DNA of 64,000 nt, taken from assembly GCA_040756135.1 (NCBI GenBank), contig JBFLZS010000004.1, positions 7,469 through 71,468 on the forward strand, read 5' to 3'. The stretch comes from Nitrospirota bacterium. Lineage in GTDB: Bacteria; Nitrospirota; Thermodesulfovibrionia; Thermodesulfovibrionales; SM23-35. Positions 4,571 through 59,069 of this stretch are shown here, piece after piece. Both the position numbers and the translations under genes were made by a program. Numbering within the stretch: position 1 is the stretch's first letter; each line of letters opens with the position of its first letter. The notes beneath the pieces are model-generated. The model made no database searches. It saw only the letters and a list, made by a program, of their open reading frames with translations, and was not told the DNA's origin.

Positions 4571-4646
4571 GTCATTCCCGCAGTTCTTAAGCGGGAATCC
4601 AGTCTTTTCTTTGGTTTTTCTGGATTCCTGCCTTCGCAGGAATGAC
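4571..4646. repeat. GTCATTCC hairpin doublet (family B)
   Basis: GTCATTCCCGCagttcttaaGCGGGAATCCAG, a spacer, then CTGGATTCCTGCcttcGCAGGAATGAC. The same architecture occurs at 44003, 59001 and inside the 168-bp elements. Confidence 0.7.
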
Positions 4647-4871: not shown

Positions 4872-5864
4872 TTACTCGAGTCTTAATACGTCTCCTTTCT
4901 TTAACGTGGTTACACCGGATTTAGGATAACCGATTGAGAACTTATCCTGCACGGTTTTTACCTCAACCAAACCTACCATCTTTTCCTCCTGACCGAGCAC
5001 AAGGTTCGTATCAGGGTCTATGATAGCCTCGCCCACAGAATATGCCTTAAAAACCATTCCCGGCTTTATGTTCAGATTTGATCCTGCATTGATATAGACG
5101 TTCTCTCCCATTACCTTTATTACCTTTGCAGAGAATGGTATTGCTTCCATTTTTGATATAATAAAATTCACACAATCAGAGATTGCCTGCCTCGTTGCCT
5201 GACCAAGAGGAGTTTTCTTAAAGCCTTCTGCATTAAAATCTACTTGTCCCCTTGCGATACCAACACCGACACCAGAAGCCTCTGCGTGTCCAGTTGCATT
5301 ATGGGAATACAACACCTGCCCAGTTGTTGTATCAATTAGTCTTATATCAACAGCCACATGGGCGCTGGAAGTTTTTACGCCGAGCCTGAAGCCCGCGATA
5401 CCAATACCGCCTCCTCCACCAGATTCTGCCATATCAAATTCTGATACCACGCCTCTTAAGATTATCTGTGCTCCTAAGAGTTCACCCACCTTAGCAGCAG
5501 ACTCCTGTTTCACTAAACCTGTCTGGCCGAGTTCCTGCTCTCCTATGACATCTTGCAATACCTGTCTTTCTACTACTATGAACCTTCCGGTCTTCATGAG
5601 TTCTGTTGTAAGCATCTCTGCAAATCCTTCTCCAAGCTTCCAGTTCCCATATACACCGGTTACCTTGTTCTCGAACCTTGTCACTGCAACCCTTTTTTTG
5701 GGTCCATAATAAGGTGGATAAACAGGCCCAATAGGTTGAGCAGATTCCTTCTCCACAGTGCTTTCTTTTTCTTCCTCCATTGCAGACTGGTCAAAAGCAT
5801 ATGTGAATTTAACAGTAAAAGCCGACAACAGAATTACTAAAATACATATGTATTTCTTGAGCAT
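4872..5864 (-). CDS. CsgG-family (curli-type secretion channel) lipoprotein-like protein with extra C-terminal beta domain
   Basis: 330 aa with a signal peptide and CsgG-like core motifs (RVAVTRFENK, FAEMLTTELMKTGRFIVVERQ, LGAQIILRGVVSEF). Confidence 0.7.
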   Translation of the reverse strand: MLKKYICILVILLSAFTVKFTYAFDQSAMEEEKESTVEKESAQPIGPVYPPYYGPKKRVAVTRFENKVTGVYGNWKLGEGFAEMLTTELMKTGRFIVVERQVLQDVIGEQELGQTGLVKQESAAKVGELLGAQIILRGVVSEFDMAESGGGGGIGIAGFRLGVKTSSAHVAVDIRLIDTTTGQVLYSHNATGHAEASGVGVGIARGQVDFNAEGFKKTPLGQATRQAISDCVNFIISKMEAIPFSAKVIKVMGENVYINAGSNLNIKPGMVFKAYSVGEAIIDPDTNLVLGQEEKMVGLVEVKTVQDKFSIGYPKSGVTTLKKGDVLRLE

Positions 5865-6094
5865 AGTCTTTACCCCCGTATTAAAAAATTTCGTGTTATA
5901 AAATAAATATTACCATAGTTTAACCCAAATTACGCAAGGTTAAATAAAATACTCGTTATTTGTCATTCTGAACTTGTTTCAGAATCTCCTACTGTCATTT
6001 CCTTCCCATCCTTTAAGGAAGAAAGCATATTGTCATATTATCACAAAATACCAATTTATATGCGCTGGGCGCTTCGCCGCCGGTGCGCAGATAG

Positions 6095-6295
6095 ATAATA
6101 AAAATTCATAAAGAACGGTTATTCGTAGACACTGCATTATGTGAAAAATGCAAATCAACTGCGATTGTGTATGACATTGATTTGCTTGATCAAGATTTAA
6201 TTTCTGAAGCTTCGAAAATTACAAGAAAATCAGAAGCTCAAATCAAAAATGACTTAAAAAATGTTTACGAAATATTAAATAGAATAAAAGCCTAA
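6095..6295 (+). pseudogene. cassette ORF remnant without canonical start
   Basis: A 66-codon open frame (..CEKCKSTAIVYDIDLLDQDLISEASKITRKSEAQIKNDLKNVYEILNRIKA*) with no in-frame ATG. Its stop TAA lies inside the first attC-like site. Confidence 0.3.
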
Positions 6296-6345
6296 CGAAT
6301 CACTCCAGCGGATGGCTTTACAGCCACCGCTGATTTAAGTTGGCC
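6290..6345 (+). repeat. attC-like recombination site candidate 1
   Basis: GCCTAAC (fits RYYYAAC) ..cagcgg atggc tttaca gccac ccgctg.. GTTGGCC. It is an imperfect bulged hairpin of 56 bp placed at the 3' end of an ORF. Confidence 0.5.
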
Positions 6346-6360
6346 ATAATATAGAAGATA

Positions 6361-6795
6361 ATGATTCTGACGCTGACCATTGAGTGTATTTGGGGTGCTT
6401 ACCTGAAAGAGCCCTGTATTCGCGTAATTGAAATAGAGGAAAACGCAAGTCTCTATGAGTTACACGATGCGATTCAAGATACTGTTAATTTTGGGCGGGA
6501 TCATCCCTTTGAATTCTACTTAGCAAACAGTTCATCACCTCAGGCCCATAAATAATGGCTAACCGAAAAAGACGAATGGGAGGATAAGGAAGATGACTTT
6601 TATAGGATCAGGCTGACAGACATCTGGCCCACTGGCCGGAAGAAACTGTACTATCTATTCGATTTTGGGGACAACTGGACCTTTGAAATCCACAAAGAAC
6701 GGGGAGTAAGAGTGCCTGAGCCCGGAGTTAAATATCCAAGACTGATAAAAGCAATTGGTCCCAATCCAGAACAATATCCGAGATTTGAAGAATGA
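6361..6795 (+). pseudogene. pRiA4b ORF-3-like family protein interrupted by an in-frame TAA
   Basis: The frame-1 ORF stops at TAA 6553..6555 and continues in the same frame to TGA 6793..6795. The downstream part carries the family signature YLFDFGDNWTFEI. Confidence 0.7.
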
Positions 6796-6805
6796 ATGAG
6801 AAAAT

Positions 6806-6873
6806 GGCCAACATGGCCATGCACCGGATCGGCAAGAAACGGCTCTTGCCTCCCGGTTATGGCCATGTTATGC
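6806..6873 (+). repeat. attC-like recombination site candidate 2
   Basis: GGCCAAC, then outer stem AACATGGCCATgcACCGG / CCGGttATGGCCATGTT, with an inner perfect 7-bp hairpin GGCAAGA-N6-TCTTGCC, ending GTTATGC. It starts 11 bp after the upstream stop codon. Confidence 0.5.
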
Positions 6874-7076
6874 GATCAACGACATTTGGAGTCTGATGAA
6901 AAAGAAATAGTTGCCAATTTAAACAACATAATAAAGTAAAAGGAAATAAGAAAATAAATGCCTAACCACTCGCTCAAGAGGGACGCAGGACCGGCCGCCA
7001 TTTTTTTTCATCCCCGGTGTCAGTGCACCGCGCCCCTTAGCTCAGTCATCAAGATAAAGTAGATAAGGAGGGTATC

Positions 7077-7517
7077 ATGAAAACAGCGCCTTTAATTTTA
7101 GTCTTATCTCTTCTCATCCTTTTTTCCTATTCAGAAGCATTCAGTGCCAATCCCGCGCCTTACACTGAAGAGGCATACAAAAAAATTGAAGCAGAAGCGA
7201 AAATGAATAAGTCTATCTATGATGCAAATTTATCAAAAGAAGAAAATTTAAGAAAAACTGTAGAATTATTCCGTAGTATATATTCGAAGGCTGGCTATAA
7301 TTATGATGATACTATAATCAAAGTAGTTGATGATATGCGACATCATCCCGAACGCATTCCAAATAATCCATATTCTGTCCCAACAATGATATATGTTGGA
7401 GTACACATAATGATGTCCGAGTGCAATTACGTAAATGTGGATTGTCTGAAATTTTTTTCGTCTGATACTGCGGAAGCAATTATTTGGCTAATAAAAAATA
7501 CTGAGTTCAAGTTTTAG
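7077..7517 (+). CDS. hypothetical secreted protein (cassette ORF)
   Basis: 146 aa with a signal peptide (MKTAPLILVLSLLILFSYSEAFSA) and the RBS AAGGAGGG 5-12 nt upstream. No family was recognised. Confidence 0.6.
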   Translation: MKTAPLILVLSLLILFSYSEAFSANPAPYTEEAYKKIEAEAKMNKSIYDANLSKEENLRKTVELFRSIYSKAGYNYDDTIIKVVDDMRHHPERIPNNPYSVPTMIYVGVHIMMSECNYVNVDCLKFFSSDTAEAIIWLIKNTEFKF

Positions 7518-7710
7518 CGGTATATGACAGTTTGAGGAGTATCTTATCATATCTGAATGGGAAGGCATAACACGTCAATCAAGGCGATGGGGGATAAGCC
7601 TCTGCGGGTTTGCAAAAGTGCTTGCACCTGAATTTCTGTACGACAAAATGAAAGTCCTGGCATACGAATCAAGCCCGGAATAAGCCTGCTTTCAATAACA
7701 GCATCATAAG

Positions 7711-7739
7711 TTGACTTCAAGATTAATGTGGGTTATTAT
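7711..7739 (+). promoter_or_regulatory. candidate promoter of the RHH/MazF toxin-antitoxin pair
   Basis: TTGACT (7711..7716), 17 nt, TATTAT (7734..7739), located 34 nt upstream of the antitoxin ATG. Confidence 0.4.
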
Positions 7740-7772
7740 AGCTATAAATATCCACATTATATGGAGGACATA

Positions 7773-8003
7773 ATGAGAACAATACAGATGACTTTAGATG
7801 ATGACCTGGTTGTGGCAGTAGATAATATTGTTAAAAAACTGAAGACATCTCGTTCCGCTTTTGCCCGTAAAGCATTAAAGGATGCTATCAAACAGGTGAA
7901 TATAAATATGCTCGAAAAGAAACATAAAAAAGGATATGAGCGTCATCCTGTTGGCAAAACGGAATTAAATGTTTGGGAGACAGAACAAGAGTGGGGTGAT
8001 TAA
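7773..8003 (+). CDS. ribbon-helix-helix (CopG/MazE-like) antitoxin
   Basis: MRTIQMTLDDDLVVAVDNIVKKLKTSRSAFARKALKDAI is a typical RHH. GGAGG lies 6 nt before ATG 7773, while the track start at 7728 is GTG. The stop overlaps the toxin start. Confidence 0.8.
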   Translation: MRTIQMTLDDDLVVAVDNIVKKLKTSRSAFARKALKDAIKQVNINMLEKKHKKGYERHPVGKTELNVWETEQEWGD

Positions 8004-8314
8004 TGAAGCGGGGTGATGTGAGATGGTACAAGTTCAAAACTCCTGACAAGAAACGGCCAGTGGTTATTCTAACAAGAAATTCTATACTGGATTATTTAGC
8101 TGAGGTTACAGTTGCTCCAATAACTTCAATAATACGCGACATACCAAGCGAAGTACCTTTATCCCGTGAAGACGGCATGCATAAAGATTGCGCTATTAAT
8201 TGTGACCACATACAGACGGTTTCAAAATCAAAAATTGGGGCATTAATTACTACTTTATCTAAAGAGAAGCTGCTTGGGCTTCGCAACGCAATAAGTTTCG
8301 CTTTAAATCTATAA
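8003..8314 (+). CDS. PemK/MazF-family endoribonuclease toxin
   Basis: 103 aa with RGDVRWYKF..KKRPVVILT..VTVAPITS, the MazF/PemK core. It overlaps the antitoxin gene by 1 nt (ATGA arrangement: the TAA stop of the antitoxin ends on the first base of the toxin ATG). Confidence 0.9.
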   Translation: MKRGDVRWYKFKTPDKKRPVVILTRNSILDYLAEVTVAPITSIIRDIPSEVPLSREDGMHKDCAINCDHIQTVSKSKIGALITTLSKEKLLGLRNAISFALNL

Positions 8315-8330
8315 CTTCAAATGGAGGAAG

Positions 8331-8383
8331 AGCCAACAAATCACTGAGCCGTGGCGTTCTGCCACTGCTTAGTTTAGTTGTTT
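8331..8383 (+). repeat. attC-like recombination site candidate 3 (sequence-related to candidate 1)
   Basis: AGCCAAC aaatcactgagc cgtggc gttct gccact gcttagttta GTTGTTT. It aligns with site 1 (AAC.AATCACT..AGC.G.TGGC-loop-GCCAC.GCT.A.TTTA.GTTG) and lies 17 bp after the mazF stop. Confidence 0.5.
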
Positions 8384-8403
8384 AAAAGCTGCTTTTCAGA
8401 TAT

Positions 8404-10041
8404 TTAAACGGAGCGTCTTCCCTCCGCAATCTGTGCTCGAATGCGCTGCTTCTTGTATACCTTCCTGTTAAAATATAAGAATAATTTTGGAAGGATTGTG
8501 GTCGAAATGCCAAGCTGCTTGTCTAAGAGCTCGAACACCCAGTTAACTGCCCTCAGGATCGGGGTAAACGCAGCGGCAGTCAATCTGAAAAGCTGTCGGA
8601 CAGGGGAAAATATTAGAAATCTTTTGATTGTACTCAGCAAGGCCGGGAAAACCTTTGTCTTCTCAAGCCATGTATATCTGGTCATGGTCTCAAGGGCGCA
8701 GCAGAATAAATACAGAGGGTCTATAAATAGCCCCTCGTGGCGATAGAGTTTGAGGAGGGTTAACATTATCCTGAAAGGTGTCCTTTGAGCAAACTTGACC
8801 CTGTATTTAATCCTTGCAAGCTCGTCTCCCTCGATCCTTTCCATTCCAGGTATTGCCCTTCCTGTTTCAGGATCGTAGATAAGATTGTACATAGGGGAAC
8901 CCTTCTGAACACGGAACCTGTTAGTCACTAAGGTGTCAACATTCCACTTGCGTCCAAACCAGAGCATATCCGTCATATCCTCCTCTGTTTCACCCGGGGA
9001 CCCAAGGATAAAATTGCAGATTAATAAGATGTTTGTCTTCTGCATCATGCGCATGGCCTTTTCAATGCTTTTTAGGGTCTGACCTTTGCCATATAATCTA
9101 AGTGTTTCATTTTTAAGTGACTCAACCCCAAAACTCAATGCAAGGAGACCTGCCTCCTCCATTTTTTTAAGGGCTTCAACGCTGCTTTTAAGCACGTGGT
9201 CTATTCTTCCAGTCCCTATATAGAGTTTGCGAATCCTGTTCTGAAGCAGCAGATCCGAAAGCTCTTCAAGCATCTTCATATTGGTGGTCATGTCATCGTC
9301 AACCCAGCCTACGATAGGTGCATCTATCTCTTTTATTTCATTAAACAAGCTCCAGGCAGACCTGCCATGCCAGCGCATGAAATTGCCATCAAAGTCCTTC
9401 CCGTATTCAAAACAGAATTTACACCTGTAGTTACAACCCACGGCAGCCCGTATAAGGTCAGCCTTTATCCCCATCATATGATAATTGTACTTGGCGTTGC
9501 GCAGATTTCTTCTCGGGTAGATATCTTCAGGGAGGTCGTGGATGACCCGTTGGGTATAGACGACCTCGTCGCCTTTTCTATAGGCAAGGTTTTTGACATT
9601 TTCAGGTGTTCCCTCGTTAAGGAGTTCCATAATAGGAATCTCGGGATTGCCACGGATAATAACATCGATCTTCTGGTACATCTGTAATATTCTGTCAGGT
9701 TCTTTAAATCCTGTGCCTCCTGCAACAACCGGGATTCCGTCTGGGATCTGGAACAGTATGTCGGGTATAACATGGATATCCCACTTACCGAATATTGAAC
9801 AGTCCTCGAAATAGCCATAAAGACAAACAAGATCTGCGTTTCTTAGGTGCTCTTTAATATCCGTCTCATAACGCATATCTAAAAGTATTGCATTTCTACC
9901 AGTCGCAGCAACACCGGCCTGCATATATTCAGCAGCGATAGGCGGGAGGGCATAGTATGGATTAATGTACGTGAAAGGATAAACAATAACTACATTTTTG
10001 ATATCCCCTTTTCTTTTTTGTAAATAAGAAATGGAAACCAT
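8404..10041 (-). CDS. B12-binding-domain radical SAM protein with hydrophobic C-terminal extension
   Basis: 545 aa with an N-terminal Rossmann-like B12-binding part, the cluster motif GCNYRCKFC (CxxxCxxC) and a TIM-barrel region (GTGRID, SFGVES). Confidence 0.85.
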   Translation of the reverse strand: MVSISYLQKRKGDIKNVVIVYPFTYINPYYALPPIAAEYMQAGVAATGRNAILLDMRYETDIKEHLRNADLVCLYGYFEDCSIFGKWDIHVIPDILFQIPDGIPVVAGGTGFKEPDRILQMYQKIDVIIRGNPEIPIMELLNEGTPENVKNLAYRKGDEVVYTQRVIHDLPEDIYPRRNLRNAKYNYHMMGIKADLIRAAVGCNYRCKFCFEYGKDFDGNFMRWHGRSAWSLFNEIKEIDAPIVGWVDDDMTTNMKMLEELSDLLLQNRIRKLYIGTGRIDHVLKSSVEALKKMEEAGLLALSFGVESLKNETLRLYGKGQTLKSIEKAMRMMQKTNILLICNFILGSPGETEEDMTDMLWFGRKWNVDTLVTNRFRVQKGSPMYNLIYDPETGRAIPGMERIEGDELARIKYRVKFAQRTPFRIMLTLLKLYRHEGLFIDPLYLFCCALETMTRYTWLEKTKVFPALLSTIKRFLIFSPVRQLFRLTAAAFTPILRAVNWVFELLDKQLGISTTILPKLFLYFNRKVYKKQRIRAQIAEGRRSV

Positions 10042-10048
10042 TAGAGGA

Positions 10049-10861
10049 TTAGAGATTTTTAGATTGTCTGAGGAGAAAAGGCATTAACTCCCTCATAATG
10101 AGGCCTTCCCTGTAACCATTGCCGTTAGGATTTACCTTGACGACATCAGATCTCTCCCAGTTCTGGAACAGGTCAATAATCTTATTAATCGACTCTTGTT
10201 GCAGTCCCTCTATTGTCTCTCTAACCGGCAGAGAGGTAACGAGATTTTTATCAATAAAATCGTTTATCTTCTCCCGATAAAAAAGCGATAGGAATACCAT
10301 CCCTTTTAATATCCTTTTGTTTGTCTTGAAAGAAAATATAAACCTTTCAAGCGAATTCTCAAGGAAAAGATCATTCCTTGCCTGTATCTTCCTGTCAATT
10401 GCCATGGCTTGAAACCAGTAACTCTTGTCAATAATGCTATCAGCCTTTATCTCCATTACTGAATGCCTGAAATTTTTCTTATCGATTATATATGTGTTAT
10501 GAGCAACTGTATCAGCTGCAAGATGGCTCATATATCCGTATACGAATGCCCTCTGTTGTTTTGTCTTACTTGCCTTCATAAGATCAAAGGCAACATCCCA
10601 GTTGTGCGAGTTTTTTTCATAAGGGAGATATTTCTTTCCAACAATAATATCGGCCACAAGATTTCCATAAAGAAAATCCTTCCTATACCGCCTGATGATC
10701 TCGAATAATCCCGCGGGAAGCAGTGAACCCATGAAATACAGTTCATTCCCGATGTATATATGTGTTAACGGCCCCCATGCAAACGCCGCTGTTGGAATTA
10801 ACAAAAAAGATAAAATAATTAAAAATCTAAAAAATATCATTTCAGCTCCTTTAATTGTCAT
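10049..10861 (-). CDS. zinc-dependent phospholipase C-like family protein (exported)
   Basis: Signal/TM N-terminus followed by AWGPLTHIYIG and HLAADTVAHN histidine motifs. The assignment is recall-based. It ends 8 nt upstream of the rSAM start, so they probably form an operon. Confidence 0.5.
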   Translation of the reverse strand: MTIKGAEMIFFRFLIILSFLLIPTAAFAWGPLTHIYIGNELYFMGSLLPAGLFEIIRRYRKDFLYGNLVADIIVGKKYLPYEKNSHNWDVAFDLMKASKTKQQRAFVYGYMSHLAADTVAHNTYIIDKKNFRHSVMEIKADSIIDKSYWFQAMAIDRKIQARNDLFLENSLERFIFSFKTNKRILKGMVFLSLFYREKINDFIDKNLVTSLPVRETIEGLQQESINKIIDLFQNWERSDVVKVNPNGNGYREGLIMRELMPFLLRQSKNL

Positions 10862-11238
10862 ATTTTATAAGCATATATTAGCTTATTTTCTAAAGAAATA
10901 TCTACCTGATCCCGCTTTAACGTCAAACTCGCATATAAAAAAATCAGCAGTTAACCCGAAAAATGCAATTAAATAATGCAGATGTTGTGAAAAAATTTAT
11001 TTTTCGATACCTTAGTGTACCTTTAGCGAATGGGATAACGAATATTTTTATCAATAGAACATATAAAAATATTTTCGATAATTCATCGAGTTAAATAAAT
11101 TTTTGAACAATGTCTGCATTATTCGGGTTAAGGGAAAGATACATATGTTGAGAAAGAGAGAGCGCATATTTTATAATTCATTAATTTTCGTTGTAGAGAA
11201 ATCTCTAAGTTATTCCGTCGGAAGGAAAAGGTTTTTTT

Positions 11239-12267
11239 ATGAAAATGTACTTCTTTTTTAAGGTTATTACATTGCTATTTATTTTCTTTTTTACCCATCA
11301 AATTCTTTACTCATCCGAAATATTTTCTGATGAAAAACATCGGGAAGACGTACGTAAAGAGCCTGAGTCTCATGCTGCTGTTTCACTCGACCGCGTAATT
11401 GCAGTGGTCAACAAGGAAGTTATAACATGGAGCGAGCTATATAAGATGATGGAGCAGGAGGCAACAGACCATGTGAAGGCGTTGCATGAAGAAGAACGGA
11501 TGAATATATTTAAAGATAATGAGGCATTCTTTCTTGATAAGCTTATTGACCTGAGACTCCAGATCCAGGAGGCCAAGAGGCTTGGGCTTGGGGTTACACC
11601 CGAAGAAATGACAGAAGCTATAGAAAATATAAAAAAGAAATATTCATTGACTGATAACGCCTTAAGGGAATCTCTCGAAAAGGAAGGGTTAACATTTGAA
11701 GAGTACAGAAAAAGACTCTCTGAACAGATAACTGTCAGCAAGCTTGTCGGTCAGCAAATAAGAAGTAAAATTGTTATATCTGATAAAGAAGTAAAAAAAT
11801 ACATGGAGGAAAATAAAAAAAGATTCGGTGATGGTGAAACTCTCAGGCTGAGGCAGATATTCTTTAAGAGACCAAAAAATGATGCAGAGAAGAAGGCATT
11901 AGAAGACAGGGCAGATTTAATCATTCAGAAATTGAAGGCAGGTGAGGATTTCTCCGCACTTGCAAAAGAGTATTCTGAAGATCCTTCAGGAAAGTTTGGT
12001 GGTGATCTTGGGTTTATGAAAAAGGACCTTCTTGCAAAAGAATTCATTGATGTACTTGATACAATGAAAATAGGCGATTTCAGTATCCCATTCTGGTCTG
12101 AAAAAGGGCTTCACATTATAAAGCTTGAGGAAAAGGTATCGGCACAAAGTATAGATGAAGTGAGAGAAGATGTAAGGAAGCAATTGGCCGAGGATCAGTT
12201 TTCAGAGAGATATAAAAACTGGATTAAAGGCTTACGAGAGAAGGCCTATATTGAAATAAGGTTATAG
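11239..12267 (+). CDS. SurA-like periplasmic chaperone / parvulin peptidyl-prolyl isomerase
   Basis: Signal peptide, a SurA-N-like helical region and a PpiC parvulin domain (FSALAKEYSEDPSGKFGGDLGFMKK..GLHIIKLEEK). Confidence 0.8.
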   Translation: MKMYFFFKVITLLFIFFFTHQILYSSEIFSDEKHREDVRKEPESHAAVSLDRVIAVVNKEVITWSELYKMMEQEATDHVKALHEEERMNIFKDNEAFFLDKLIDLRLQIQEAKRLGLGVTPEEMTEAIENIKKKYSLTDNALRESLEKEGLTFEEYRKRLSEQITVSKLVGQQIRSKIVISDKEVKKYMEENKKRFGDGETLRLRQIFFKRPKNDAEKKALEDRADLIIQKLKAGEDFSALAKEYSEDPSGKFGGDLGFMKKDLLAKEFIDVLDTMKIGDFSIPFWSEKGLHIIKLEEKVSAQSIDEVREDVRKQLAEDQFSERYKNWIKGLREKAYIEIRL

Positions 12268-12298: not shown

Positions 12299-12374
12299 TG
12301 GCGGTCCCAACGGGATTCGAACCCGTGTTTTAGCCTTGAGAGGGCCATGTCCTAGGCCTCTAGACGATGGGACC
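12299..12374 (-). tRNA. tRNA-Glu (anticodon CUC)
   Basis: The reverse complement folds as a cloverleaf: GGTCCCA acceptor, anticodon arm TGGCC-CTCTCAA-GGCTA, T arm ACGGG-TTCGAATC-CCGT, with an encoded CCA. It is close to the classic tRNA-Glu sequence. Confidence 0.9.
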
Positions 12375-12377
12375 GCT

Positions 12378-12451
12378 TGGCTGGGGAGAGAGGATTCGAA
12401 CCCCTGTAAGCAGATCCAGAGTCTGCCGTCCTGCCACTGGACGACTCCCCA
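12378..12451 (-). tRNA. tRNA-Gln (anticodon CUG)
   Basis: Reverse complement TGGGGAG..GCAGA-CTCTGGA-TCTGC..GGTTCGAATCC..CTCCCCA-G-CCA. The acceptor and anticodon stems pair fully (the T stem has one G-U pair). Confidence 0.9.
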
Positions 12452-14766: not shown

Positions 14767-14935
14767 GGTTCTTTCGTAAAAAAGTTGAAAATCATGAATA
14801 CTGGATTCCCGCCTGCGCGGGAATGACAAACTGCTTACAATTAAAAACGTCATTCCCCGACCCCCGATTACAACCTTCGAGGGCAGGCTTGATCGGGGAA
14901 TCCAGAGTGCCTTTTCAACTAAAATACGAAAGACA
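14767..14935. mobile_element. 168-169 bp MITE-like element, copy 1 (family C)
   Basis: Near-identical to 31988..32155. Terminal inverted repeats are TCTTTCGTAaaaaAGTTGAAAA / TTTTCAACTaaaaTACGAAAGA, and the interior consists of family-B hairpins. Confidence 0.8.
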
Positions 14936-31987: not shown

Positions 31988-32155
31988 GGTTCTTTCGTAA
32001 AATAGTTGAAAATCATAAATACTGGATTCCCGCCTGCGCGGGAATGACAAACTGCTTACAATTAAAAACGTCATTCCCCGACCCCCGATTACAACCTTCG
32101 AGGGCGGGCTTGATCGGGGAATCCAGAAGCCTTTTCAACTAAAATACGAAAGACA
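31988..32155. mobile_element. 168-bp MITE-like element, copy 2 (family C)
   Basis: Near-identical to 14767..14935 with only a handful of substitutions, in the same orientation. Confidence 0.8.
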
Positions 32156-44002: not shown

Positions 44003-44110
44003 GTCATTGTCCGGCTTGACCGGACAATCCATGGTTCTACAAGCTCACCATGACAATTGTCACCCTGAGCCTGCCGAAGGGTGGATTCCCCGATCAAGTC
44101 GGGGAATGAC
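44003..44110. repeat. GTCATTGYCC hairpin doublet (family B) with a central GTCACCCTGAGCCTGCCGAAGGGTG module
   Basis: GTCATTGTCCGGcttgaCCGGACAATCCATGG ... GGATTCCCCGAtcaagTCGGGGAATGAC. Confidence 0.7.
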
Positions 44111-59000: not shown

Positions 59001-59069
59001 GTCATTGCCCGACTTGATCGGGCAATCCAGAGAAAGGAACTGGATTCTCCGGTTGAGCCGGAGAATGAC
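59001..59069. repeat. GTCATTGCCC hairpin doublet (family B)
   Basis: GTCATTGCCCGActtgaTCGGGCAATCCAG ... CTGGATTCTCCGGttgaGCCGGAGAATGAC. Confidence 0.75.

Follow-up and report, generated by a model that had tools for sequence, protein, structure and literature searches.

We analysed a 64,000-nt stretch of contig JBFLZS010000004.1 from a Nitrospirota bacterium (hereafter the window), with the focus on a 2.5-kb block at positions 5865-8403. The block, in which all plausible open reading frames (ORFs) are on the plus strand, lies between a CsgG-like gene on the left (4872-5864) and a radical-SAM gene on the right (8404-10041), both on the minus strand. The initial annotation had described this layout, and it is confirmed by the sequence and by Pfam matches. 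The block is very likely a worn relic of an integron cassette array in a Nitrospirota chromosome. It holds five sites derived from attC, clustered on the same strand, and no integrase is present within 64 kb. Furthermore, the array is not merely integrase-less but decayed, and probably immobile: four of its five sites are lesioned in features needed for recombination. The initial annotation had interpreted the block as a cluster of attC sites lacking an integron integrase (CALIN), a class defined by Cury et al. (2016) and in IntegronFinder 2.0 (PMC4889954, PMC9024848). This interpretation is supported by attC models and attC families, and we refine it here to a fossil array. CALINs are viewed as degraded integrons by the IntegronFinder authors, and among the 2961 CALINs in RefSeq complete genomes only 2 are from the phylum Nitrospira (PMC9024848).

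Since Rfam holds no attC family, we built three surrogate attC covariance models (R1, R2, and R3), all from training sets free of window sequence. As a seed we used the attC of aadA1, which was matched over at least 80% of its length by 2475 plasmids, 1962 of them at an identity of at least 99%. R1 was trained on 12 different attCs from class-1 resistance cassette arrays on plasmids, a source that soon became redundant on sampling. R2 was trained on 48 attCs among the R1 matches in control loci, including environmental arrays beside intI, and R3 on 133 attCs from metagenomic arrays. In the R1 alignment the canonical attC fold, in which 5 nt separate the R box from an L box carrying a single bulged base, paired 82.8% of the cells; none of 500 shuffles equaled this value and the signal was destroyed when the partner column was slid. 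In control loci fetched by integrase homology, attCs were found on the strand expected from intI, with scores of 16-70 bits. No attC was found at E<=1 in a 15-kb locus of an unrelated metagenome-assembled genome (MAG), and none in 33 kb of other loci.

The window was scanned on both strands (128 kb search space) with filters off; the E-values are rough, because the calibration was shortened. The top three matches of R1 were 6290-6345 (site 1; 21.8 bits, E=0.0066), 6960-7054 (site 3; 17.5 bits), and 6806-6873 (site 2; 16.1 bits). R2 returned the same places with 35.5 bits for 6960-7054 (E=5.6e-6), 23.8 bits for 6806-6873 (E=0.0025), and 20.9 bits for 6290-6345, together with a partial match at 8332 (13.0 bits). 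At these four places R3 scored 44.2, 24.2, 18.9, and 18.0 bits, the highest value belonging to site 1 (E=4e-9) and the lowest to a partial match at site 5; its next-best match was the reverse strand of site 1 (12.4 bits). The best matches of each model were on the plus strand and inside 5865-8403 only, and the remaining window matches had E>=0.7. Thus the check by an attC covariance model that the initial annotation had proposed singles out its candidates and nothing else. The detected sites, three to four per model, are spaced 87-1278 bp apart, and every one lies directly 3' of an ORF. The candidates at 6960 and 7565 had been ranked as weaker. None of the three models detects 7565 (site 4), but 6960 is not weak, having the best R2 score of the window.

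Folding as single-stranded DNA gave a related picture. The three main palindromes (sites 1, 2, and 5) reached z-scores of -3.2 to -6.4 against dinucleotide shuffles, with 0-3 of 200 shuffles equal; site 2 had z=-6.4. The candidates at 6960 and 7565, taken whole, folded no better than dinucleotide shuffles. The initial annotation had asked for folding and for extrahelical bases, and the three palindromes fold beyond shuffles; bulges are seen at the 6290, 6806, and 6960 sites but not at site 5, a plain hairpin.

Further support for an integron origin came from relatives of the sites. A 23-nt pattern common to site 1 and to a decayed copy in a metagenomic locus (L054) was used to retrieve a family which we call F58; the pattern is window-derived, and the copies retrieved and their contexts are independent of the window. 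It was found in at least 120 metagenome contigs (L059-L178) from sediment, freshwater, and groundwater, versus about 7 expected by our rough estimate. The family is highly uniform, with 70 of the 75 complete copies being exactly 58 nt long. Its consensus reads GCCTAAC AAATC ACT-C-CAGCGG-A-TGGCT TAC AGCCA CCGCTG ATT TCAGTC GTTAGGC, where the R'' and R' boxes are variable and the stem shows compensatory changes (CAG/CTG to GTG/CAC). Truncation or decay affects about 11 of 86 copies, among them solitary ones in a 127-kb contig (L120) and a 43-kb contig (L129). A hidden Markov model of F58 found two window matches by nhmmer, 6291-6341 (E=7.5e-16) and 8333-8383 (E=9.6e-5), and none elsewhere. These are our sites 1 and 5, which the initial annotation had called sites 1 and 3 (6290-6345, 8331-8383) and had regarded as alignable to each other; membership of one family bears this out.

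On the F58 contigs, R2 detected 204 attCs (E<=0.1) in 80 contigs, on one strand per contig with a single weak exception. The F58 copies score 24-48 bits with R2 and are intermixed with other attC types in same-strand arrays of 2-12 attC matches. Sites 2, 3, and 4 match 68-, 95-, and ~86-nt attC types from F58-bearing arrays, so that homologues of all five sites, representing four attC types, are present in metagenomic integron arrays. Contigs L073, L085, and L100 carry a full-length divergent intI beside the array, with products 44-48% identical to other IntIs. L085, with its intI at 1486-2529 and at least 10 cassettes, is a textbook integron. Its integrase belongs to a very abundant clade of 84-97% identical proteins (P0144-P0263) labeled as Anaerolineales, Methylomirabilota, Deltaproteobacteria, and Nitrospirota. 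The taxonomic assignment of proteins from MAGs may be affected by binning errors, and the four-phylum labels could stand for cross-phylum spread or for binning noise. In three IMG/VR loci (L036, L037, L038) we observed attCs downstream of intI on the same strand, an inverted integrase orientation and not the usual divergent one.

These contexts bear on a different explanation of the palindromes, namely that they are intrinsic terminators or hairpins of the repetitive extragenic palindromic (REP) kind that resemble attC by chance, the block being an island of accessory genes. The inner stem of site 5 and its T-rich tail fit a terminator pattern (8351-8365) between the convergent mazF and radical-SAM genes, the window does hold a true REP-like family with one copy at 5962-5986, and islands carrying homologues of one cargo gene are devoid of attC matches. 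Against this, models trained on attCs pick exactly these sites on this strand, and every site is homologous to attCs of arrays that lie beside intI. Moreover, terminator-like sites are not enriched (3 versus 2.4 expected). A dispersed REP-like family would be expected to have further copies, but no extra copies of the sites are present in the window and the metagenomic ones lie in same-strand attC arrays. We therefore consider a chance resemblance extremely unlikely. The initial annotation had named membership in a repeat family found outside cassettes as a reason to abandon its reading; repeat families do include the palindromes, yet these families consist of attCs, as exemplified by L073, L085, and L100.

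Alignment to intact homologues revealed lesions at four of the five sites. All R'' box positions quoted in the initial annotation (6290, 6806, 8331, 6960, 7565) proved correct. Site 1 (6290-6345, plus strand; R'' GCCTAAC, R' GTTGGCC at 6339) is an F58 member that retains both boxes and both bulges. Compared to the family it has one additional nucleotide in the loop and lacks three of the 3' spacer (TCAGTC to TAA), a spacer whose length is highly uniform across F58. Site 2 (6806-6873, plus strand; R'' GGCCAAC, R' GTTATGC at 6867) is of the 68-nt type, with one bulged G on the R''/L'' arm, one C/T mismatch, and spacers that are complementary by chance. It is 86% identical to L109:372-430, a 42-bit attC, and collinear without indels with L109:362-429, L100, and L148, the chief difference being one mismatch. 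Site 2 is thus the only one of the five that looks structurally intact as judged from these alignments.

Site 3 (6960-7054, plus strand) is of the 95-nt type and follows the canonical order of R'' GCCTAAC, 5 nt, L'' GCT-C-AAG with C and A bulged, L' CTTAGC, and TCAGTC. The R' position, however, reads ATCAAGA and contains no GTT; the crossover point is therefore lost. The site is collinear with L071:9656-9750, a 95-nt attC, until the last base before R', and continues beyond it with the unrelated ATCAAGA... sequence; from this point of divergence it is 12 nt to the next gene's ribosome-binding site. An integrase-made junction with a secondary site was considered for the loss of R' and rejected, as the site has also lost the conserved G that precedes the crossover. 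A plain deletion or rearrangement appears more likely.

Site 4 (7565-7648, plus strand) is a decayed member of the ~86-nt type with relatives at L089:1153-1238 (a 53-bit attC) and L151:2749-2835, identified by blastn and aligned with MAFFT. Its 5' half is whole (R'' GCATAAC, then ACGTC AAT-C-AAG...), but a deletion has removed about 5 nt of L', and in place of GTTAGG the R' box reads GACAAA, its GTT having become GAC. Site 5 (8331-8386, plus strand) is a diverged F58 member whose 3' half is collinear with the family, and both family bulged bases (C16, A23) are missing, leaving a plain hairpin. Its R'' box AGCCAAC had been assigned correctly at 8331. The R' box had not: the GTTGTTT string quoted for it is present at 8377, but the family alignment places R' at GTTTAAA (8380-8386). 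In summary, sites 1, 2, and 5 have both the R'' and the R' box, whereas site 3 has no R' and site 4 a mutated one. Bulges are found on the correct R''/L'' arm at sites 1, 2, and 3, whereas site 5 lacks those of its family. Sites 1 and 5 thus deviate from the F58 norm in length or bulges.

The R box and the extrahelical bases have published roles in attC recombination. On this ground, and because family length is strictly conserved, the damaged sites would no longer recombine. An opposing interpretation is that the array is live and works as a satellite, its cassettes being excised and reshuffled in trans by an integrase encoded elsewhere in the same genome. The intact appearance of site 2 and the boxes and bulges retained at site 1 would suit such an array, matching-clade integrases are found in Nitrospirota MAGs of the same submission batch, and our search was confined to the window. 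Against it stand the lesions in R', L', spacer length or extrahelical bases at four of five sites and the state of the cargo, of which one gene is a pseudogene and one cassette a stub. We consider a live array improbable and favor a decayed one.

Direct searches for an integrase agree with a decayed array. The initial annotation had noted that no intI is visible, and a tblastn search of the whole window with IntI1 as query indeed returned nothing better than E=2.9. A complete integron would comprise intI, attI, and the cassette promoter Pc beside the array; here no intI is present in the window and the left flank is occupied by the CsgG-like gene. Integrons clearly occur in MAGs of this phylum. 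A contig of one Nitrospirota MAG (L179) contains intI and three cassettes, with attCs of 31-46 bits, beside uvrB and uvrA. This integron was considered as a part of the genome of the window and rejected: the protein accessions are ~267,000 apart and L179 therefore derives from a different MAG, which also counts against a live array served by it.

The cargo of the block corresponds to what the initial annotation had listed as typical of cassettes (an ORF remnant, a pRiA4b-ORF3-like pseudogene, a small secreted protein with a ribosome-binding site, and an RHH/MazF pair with a promoter), and each item was recovered. The first cassette holds an open frame on the plus strand (6095-6295) whose first start codon is a GTG at 6167 (ORF 6167-6295, 42 aa). 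Its stop codon TAA sits inside the R'' box of site 1, Pfam gave no match for the frame, and it probably represents what is left of the 3' end of a small gene. The second cassette (6361-6795, plus strand) carries a PRiA4_ORF3-like pseudogene in two halves, 6361-6555 and 6556-6795, that both match PF07929 and are split by a single in-frame TAA (6553-6555). The third is a 181-bp stub with only ~86 nt of cargo (6874-6959, plus strand), so that two of five cargos are damaged. This stub ends in a short frame, ...EKEIVANLNNIIK followed by the stop, that resembles the end of the frame in the first cassette, and it may be a truncated relative of the gene there. We also observed a direct repeat in which 6278-6311 and 6948-6981 are 76% alike, covering the last codons and R'', with 6874-6939 also implicated; the two frame ends read …NVYEILNRIKA and …EIVANLNNIIK, each before its stop.

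The gene of the fourth cassette (7077-7517, plus strand) is preceded by its own ribosome-binding site, GGAGG (7066-7070), and encodes a protein of 146 aa whose N-terminus forms a hydrophobic leader. This protein, 100% identical to MEW6416815.1 of a Nitrospirota MAG, matches no Pfam family. Its homologue loci (L054-L058) are same-strand islands of small ORFs that contain no detectable attCs. In L054, which encodes a 76%-identical homologue, a decayed F58 copy lies just upstream of the gene (1212-1262). The island in L054 (1-3620, same strand) further comprises HicB, an ORF with a DUF2283 gene, and an AAA_14/DUF4143 ATPase, has no model-detectable attC, and shows by eye a tRNA-like sequence at its end. 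It may be a second fossil array.

The fifth cassette contains an antitoxin gene of the RHH_1 family (7773-8003, plus strand; PF01402) and a PemK/MazF toxin gene (8003-8314, plus strand; PF02452), which overlap by one base. Ahead of the pair is a promoter-like TTGACT-17-TATTAT sequence (7711-7739, plus strand), and its -10 element is overlapped by a palindrome (7724-7759) with abutting 18-nt arms, TAATGTGGGTTATTATAG and CTATAAATATCCACATTA, that are 83% complementary. The region 7711-7759 is likely an autoregulated promoter with operator for the RHH antitoxin/toxin pair, as predicted from these motifs.

In comparison to known systems, the block is closest to a CALIN. The label fits because it has at least two model-detected attCs within 4 kb of each other on the same strand and no integrase nearby, and the cargo, with its small ORFs, its pseudogene, and its toxin-antitoxin pair, is also alike. 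It differs in that the array was called with surrogate models and not with attc_4.cm, and in that decay is unusually explicit, with four of five sites damaged. Sedentary chromosomal integrons such as the Vibrio superintegron, as well as L085 and L179, have the same cassette grammar of ORF plus attC on one strand, and L085-like arrays share the attC types of the window. Large chromosomal arrays carry toxin-antitoxin cassettes with their own promoters, as does this block. Compared to these integrons the window shows no intI, attI or Pc, where attI lacks a general model and is unsearchable, and it has five cassettes only, with four attC types instead of one species-typical repeat.

The attCs of class-1 cassettes (aadA1, cmlA5, blaOXA-10, catB3, and others) have the same box layout as the window sites, with R'' RYYYAAC, 5 nt, and L'' with a bulged base on one arm and L', 5-6 nt, and GTTRRRY on the other. 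Indeed, the class-1-only model R1 finds window sites, but these belong to environmental families and have low R1 scores of 16-22 bits compared to 40-70 for the training cassettes. REP-like hairpins and intrinsic terminators share with the sites that they are short intergenic palindromes 3' of genes, and site 5 may terminate transcription. What sets the attCs apart is that one of their arms bears asymmetric bulges, that they possess AAC/GTT boxes, and that they occur in arrays only and in association with intI.

The source of the window is a MAG, and a third possibility is that a foreign cassette array was joined into a Nitrospirota contig by assembly or binning. Repeats of attC are a known source of assembly problems (PMC9024848), and the very similar integrases with four phylum labels could point in the same direction. 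However, the block lies in the interior of an unbroken sequence, where unique genes adjoin it to the left and to the right, and its GC content (0.33-0.45) grades into both flanks. The attCs are of four diverged types, and consequently there is little room for a repeat-driven misjoin. Such an artefact is very unlikely. In a search of genome contigs, a homologue of the radical-SAM protein with 70% identity was found in one Desulfobacterales MAG, with neighbours not in common. Exact-sequence look-ups with the CsgG-like, MazF, and 146-aa proteins matched no contig.

Several points weigh against reading the block as a decayed cassette array and have to be set against the evidence above. The covariance models are surrogates with a shortened calibration, and IntegronFinder's own model is not among them; taxon-specific attC models are published as well (PMC8352920 supplement). 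R2 and R3 are iterative descendants of R1, and their training matches were vetted by position and strand relative to intI only. The loss of site function was deduced from family uniformity and from the published roles of extrahelical bases and R boxes. An intI elsewhere in the genome is possible, the search having covered the 64-kb window out of a 97.6-kb contig. Neither the array's left edge (5866-6094) nor a possible attI remnant has definable limits; a weak attC-model match at 5918-5945 (E=2.7-4.5) was considered as left boundary, is at noise level, and was not used. Finally, no attCs are detected on either side of the homologues that L054 and L056 have of the 146-aa gene, and the gene is thus not demonstrably cassette-borne elsewhere.

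We propose the following history for the block. As suggested by anatomy and homology, five cassettes, each consisting of cargo and attC, would once have been joined on one strand. They may have been assembled by an integron integrase like that of L085 or L179, the kind that adjoins these attC types in metagenomes from sediment and groundwater. Such an enzyme acts on attC as a folded bottom strand, with recombination at the AAC/GTT triplet. The subsequent decay, which comparison with intact relatives shows, has left the array with intI and attI no longer adjacent, with sites 1, 3, 4, and 5 eroded, and with a pseudogene and a stub among the cassettes. At present the cassettes are presumably essentially fixed. 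The RHH-MazF pair with its predicted promoter and operator is the likeliest functional part and may aid persistence of the block, and the 146-aa predicted exported protein may still be expressed. The bulge-less site 5 is probably only a hairpin now, perhaps serving as a terminator between convergent genes.

Some further features of the window were observed. A hairpin with the pattern GTCATTC-(stem-loop-stem)-GAATC is present in 7 copies versus 0.2 expected, at 4571-4599, 4623-4646, 5962-5986, 14804-14827, 32025-32048, 44084-44110, and 59043-59069. The stems differ between copies and are self-complementary. This repeat is REP-like and distinct from attC. The copy at 5962-5986 is at the left edge of the block, two copies flank the region downstream of the CsgG-like gene, and similar ones are found at L054:645-680 and L126:405-434. 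To the right of the block, a sharp low-GC stretch (0.26-0.33) at 10800-11400 lies directly past a gene for a Zn-dependent phospholipase C-like protein, and tRNA-Glu(CTC) and tRNA-Gln(CTG) are neighbours at 12299-12451 on the minus strand. An Rfam scan of the window returned two tRNAs only.

CALINs are common and as one of them the element adds little new. Its five sites form a site-by-site erosion series of what happens once the integrase is gone, comprising spacer deletion, loss of R', and loss of extrahelical bases. A tentative and rather doubtful extension is that F58 and its partner integrase clade make up one widely traveling integron platform of anoxic sediments and groundwater. The window would then represent an entry into Nitrospirota followed by domestication, in which a toxin-antitoxin cassette anchors the block and a bulge-less attC has been re-used as terminator. 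The block also ties the chromosome of a Nitrospirota bacterium to an attC/integrase lineage that is abundant in the environment and very conserved, and this lineage could be used to trace the flow of cassettes among sediment phyla.

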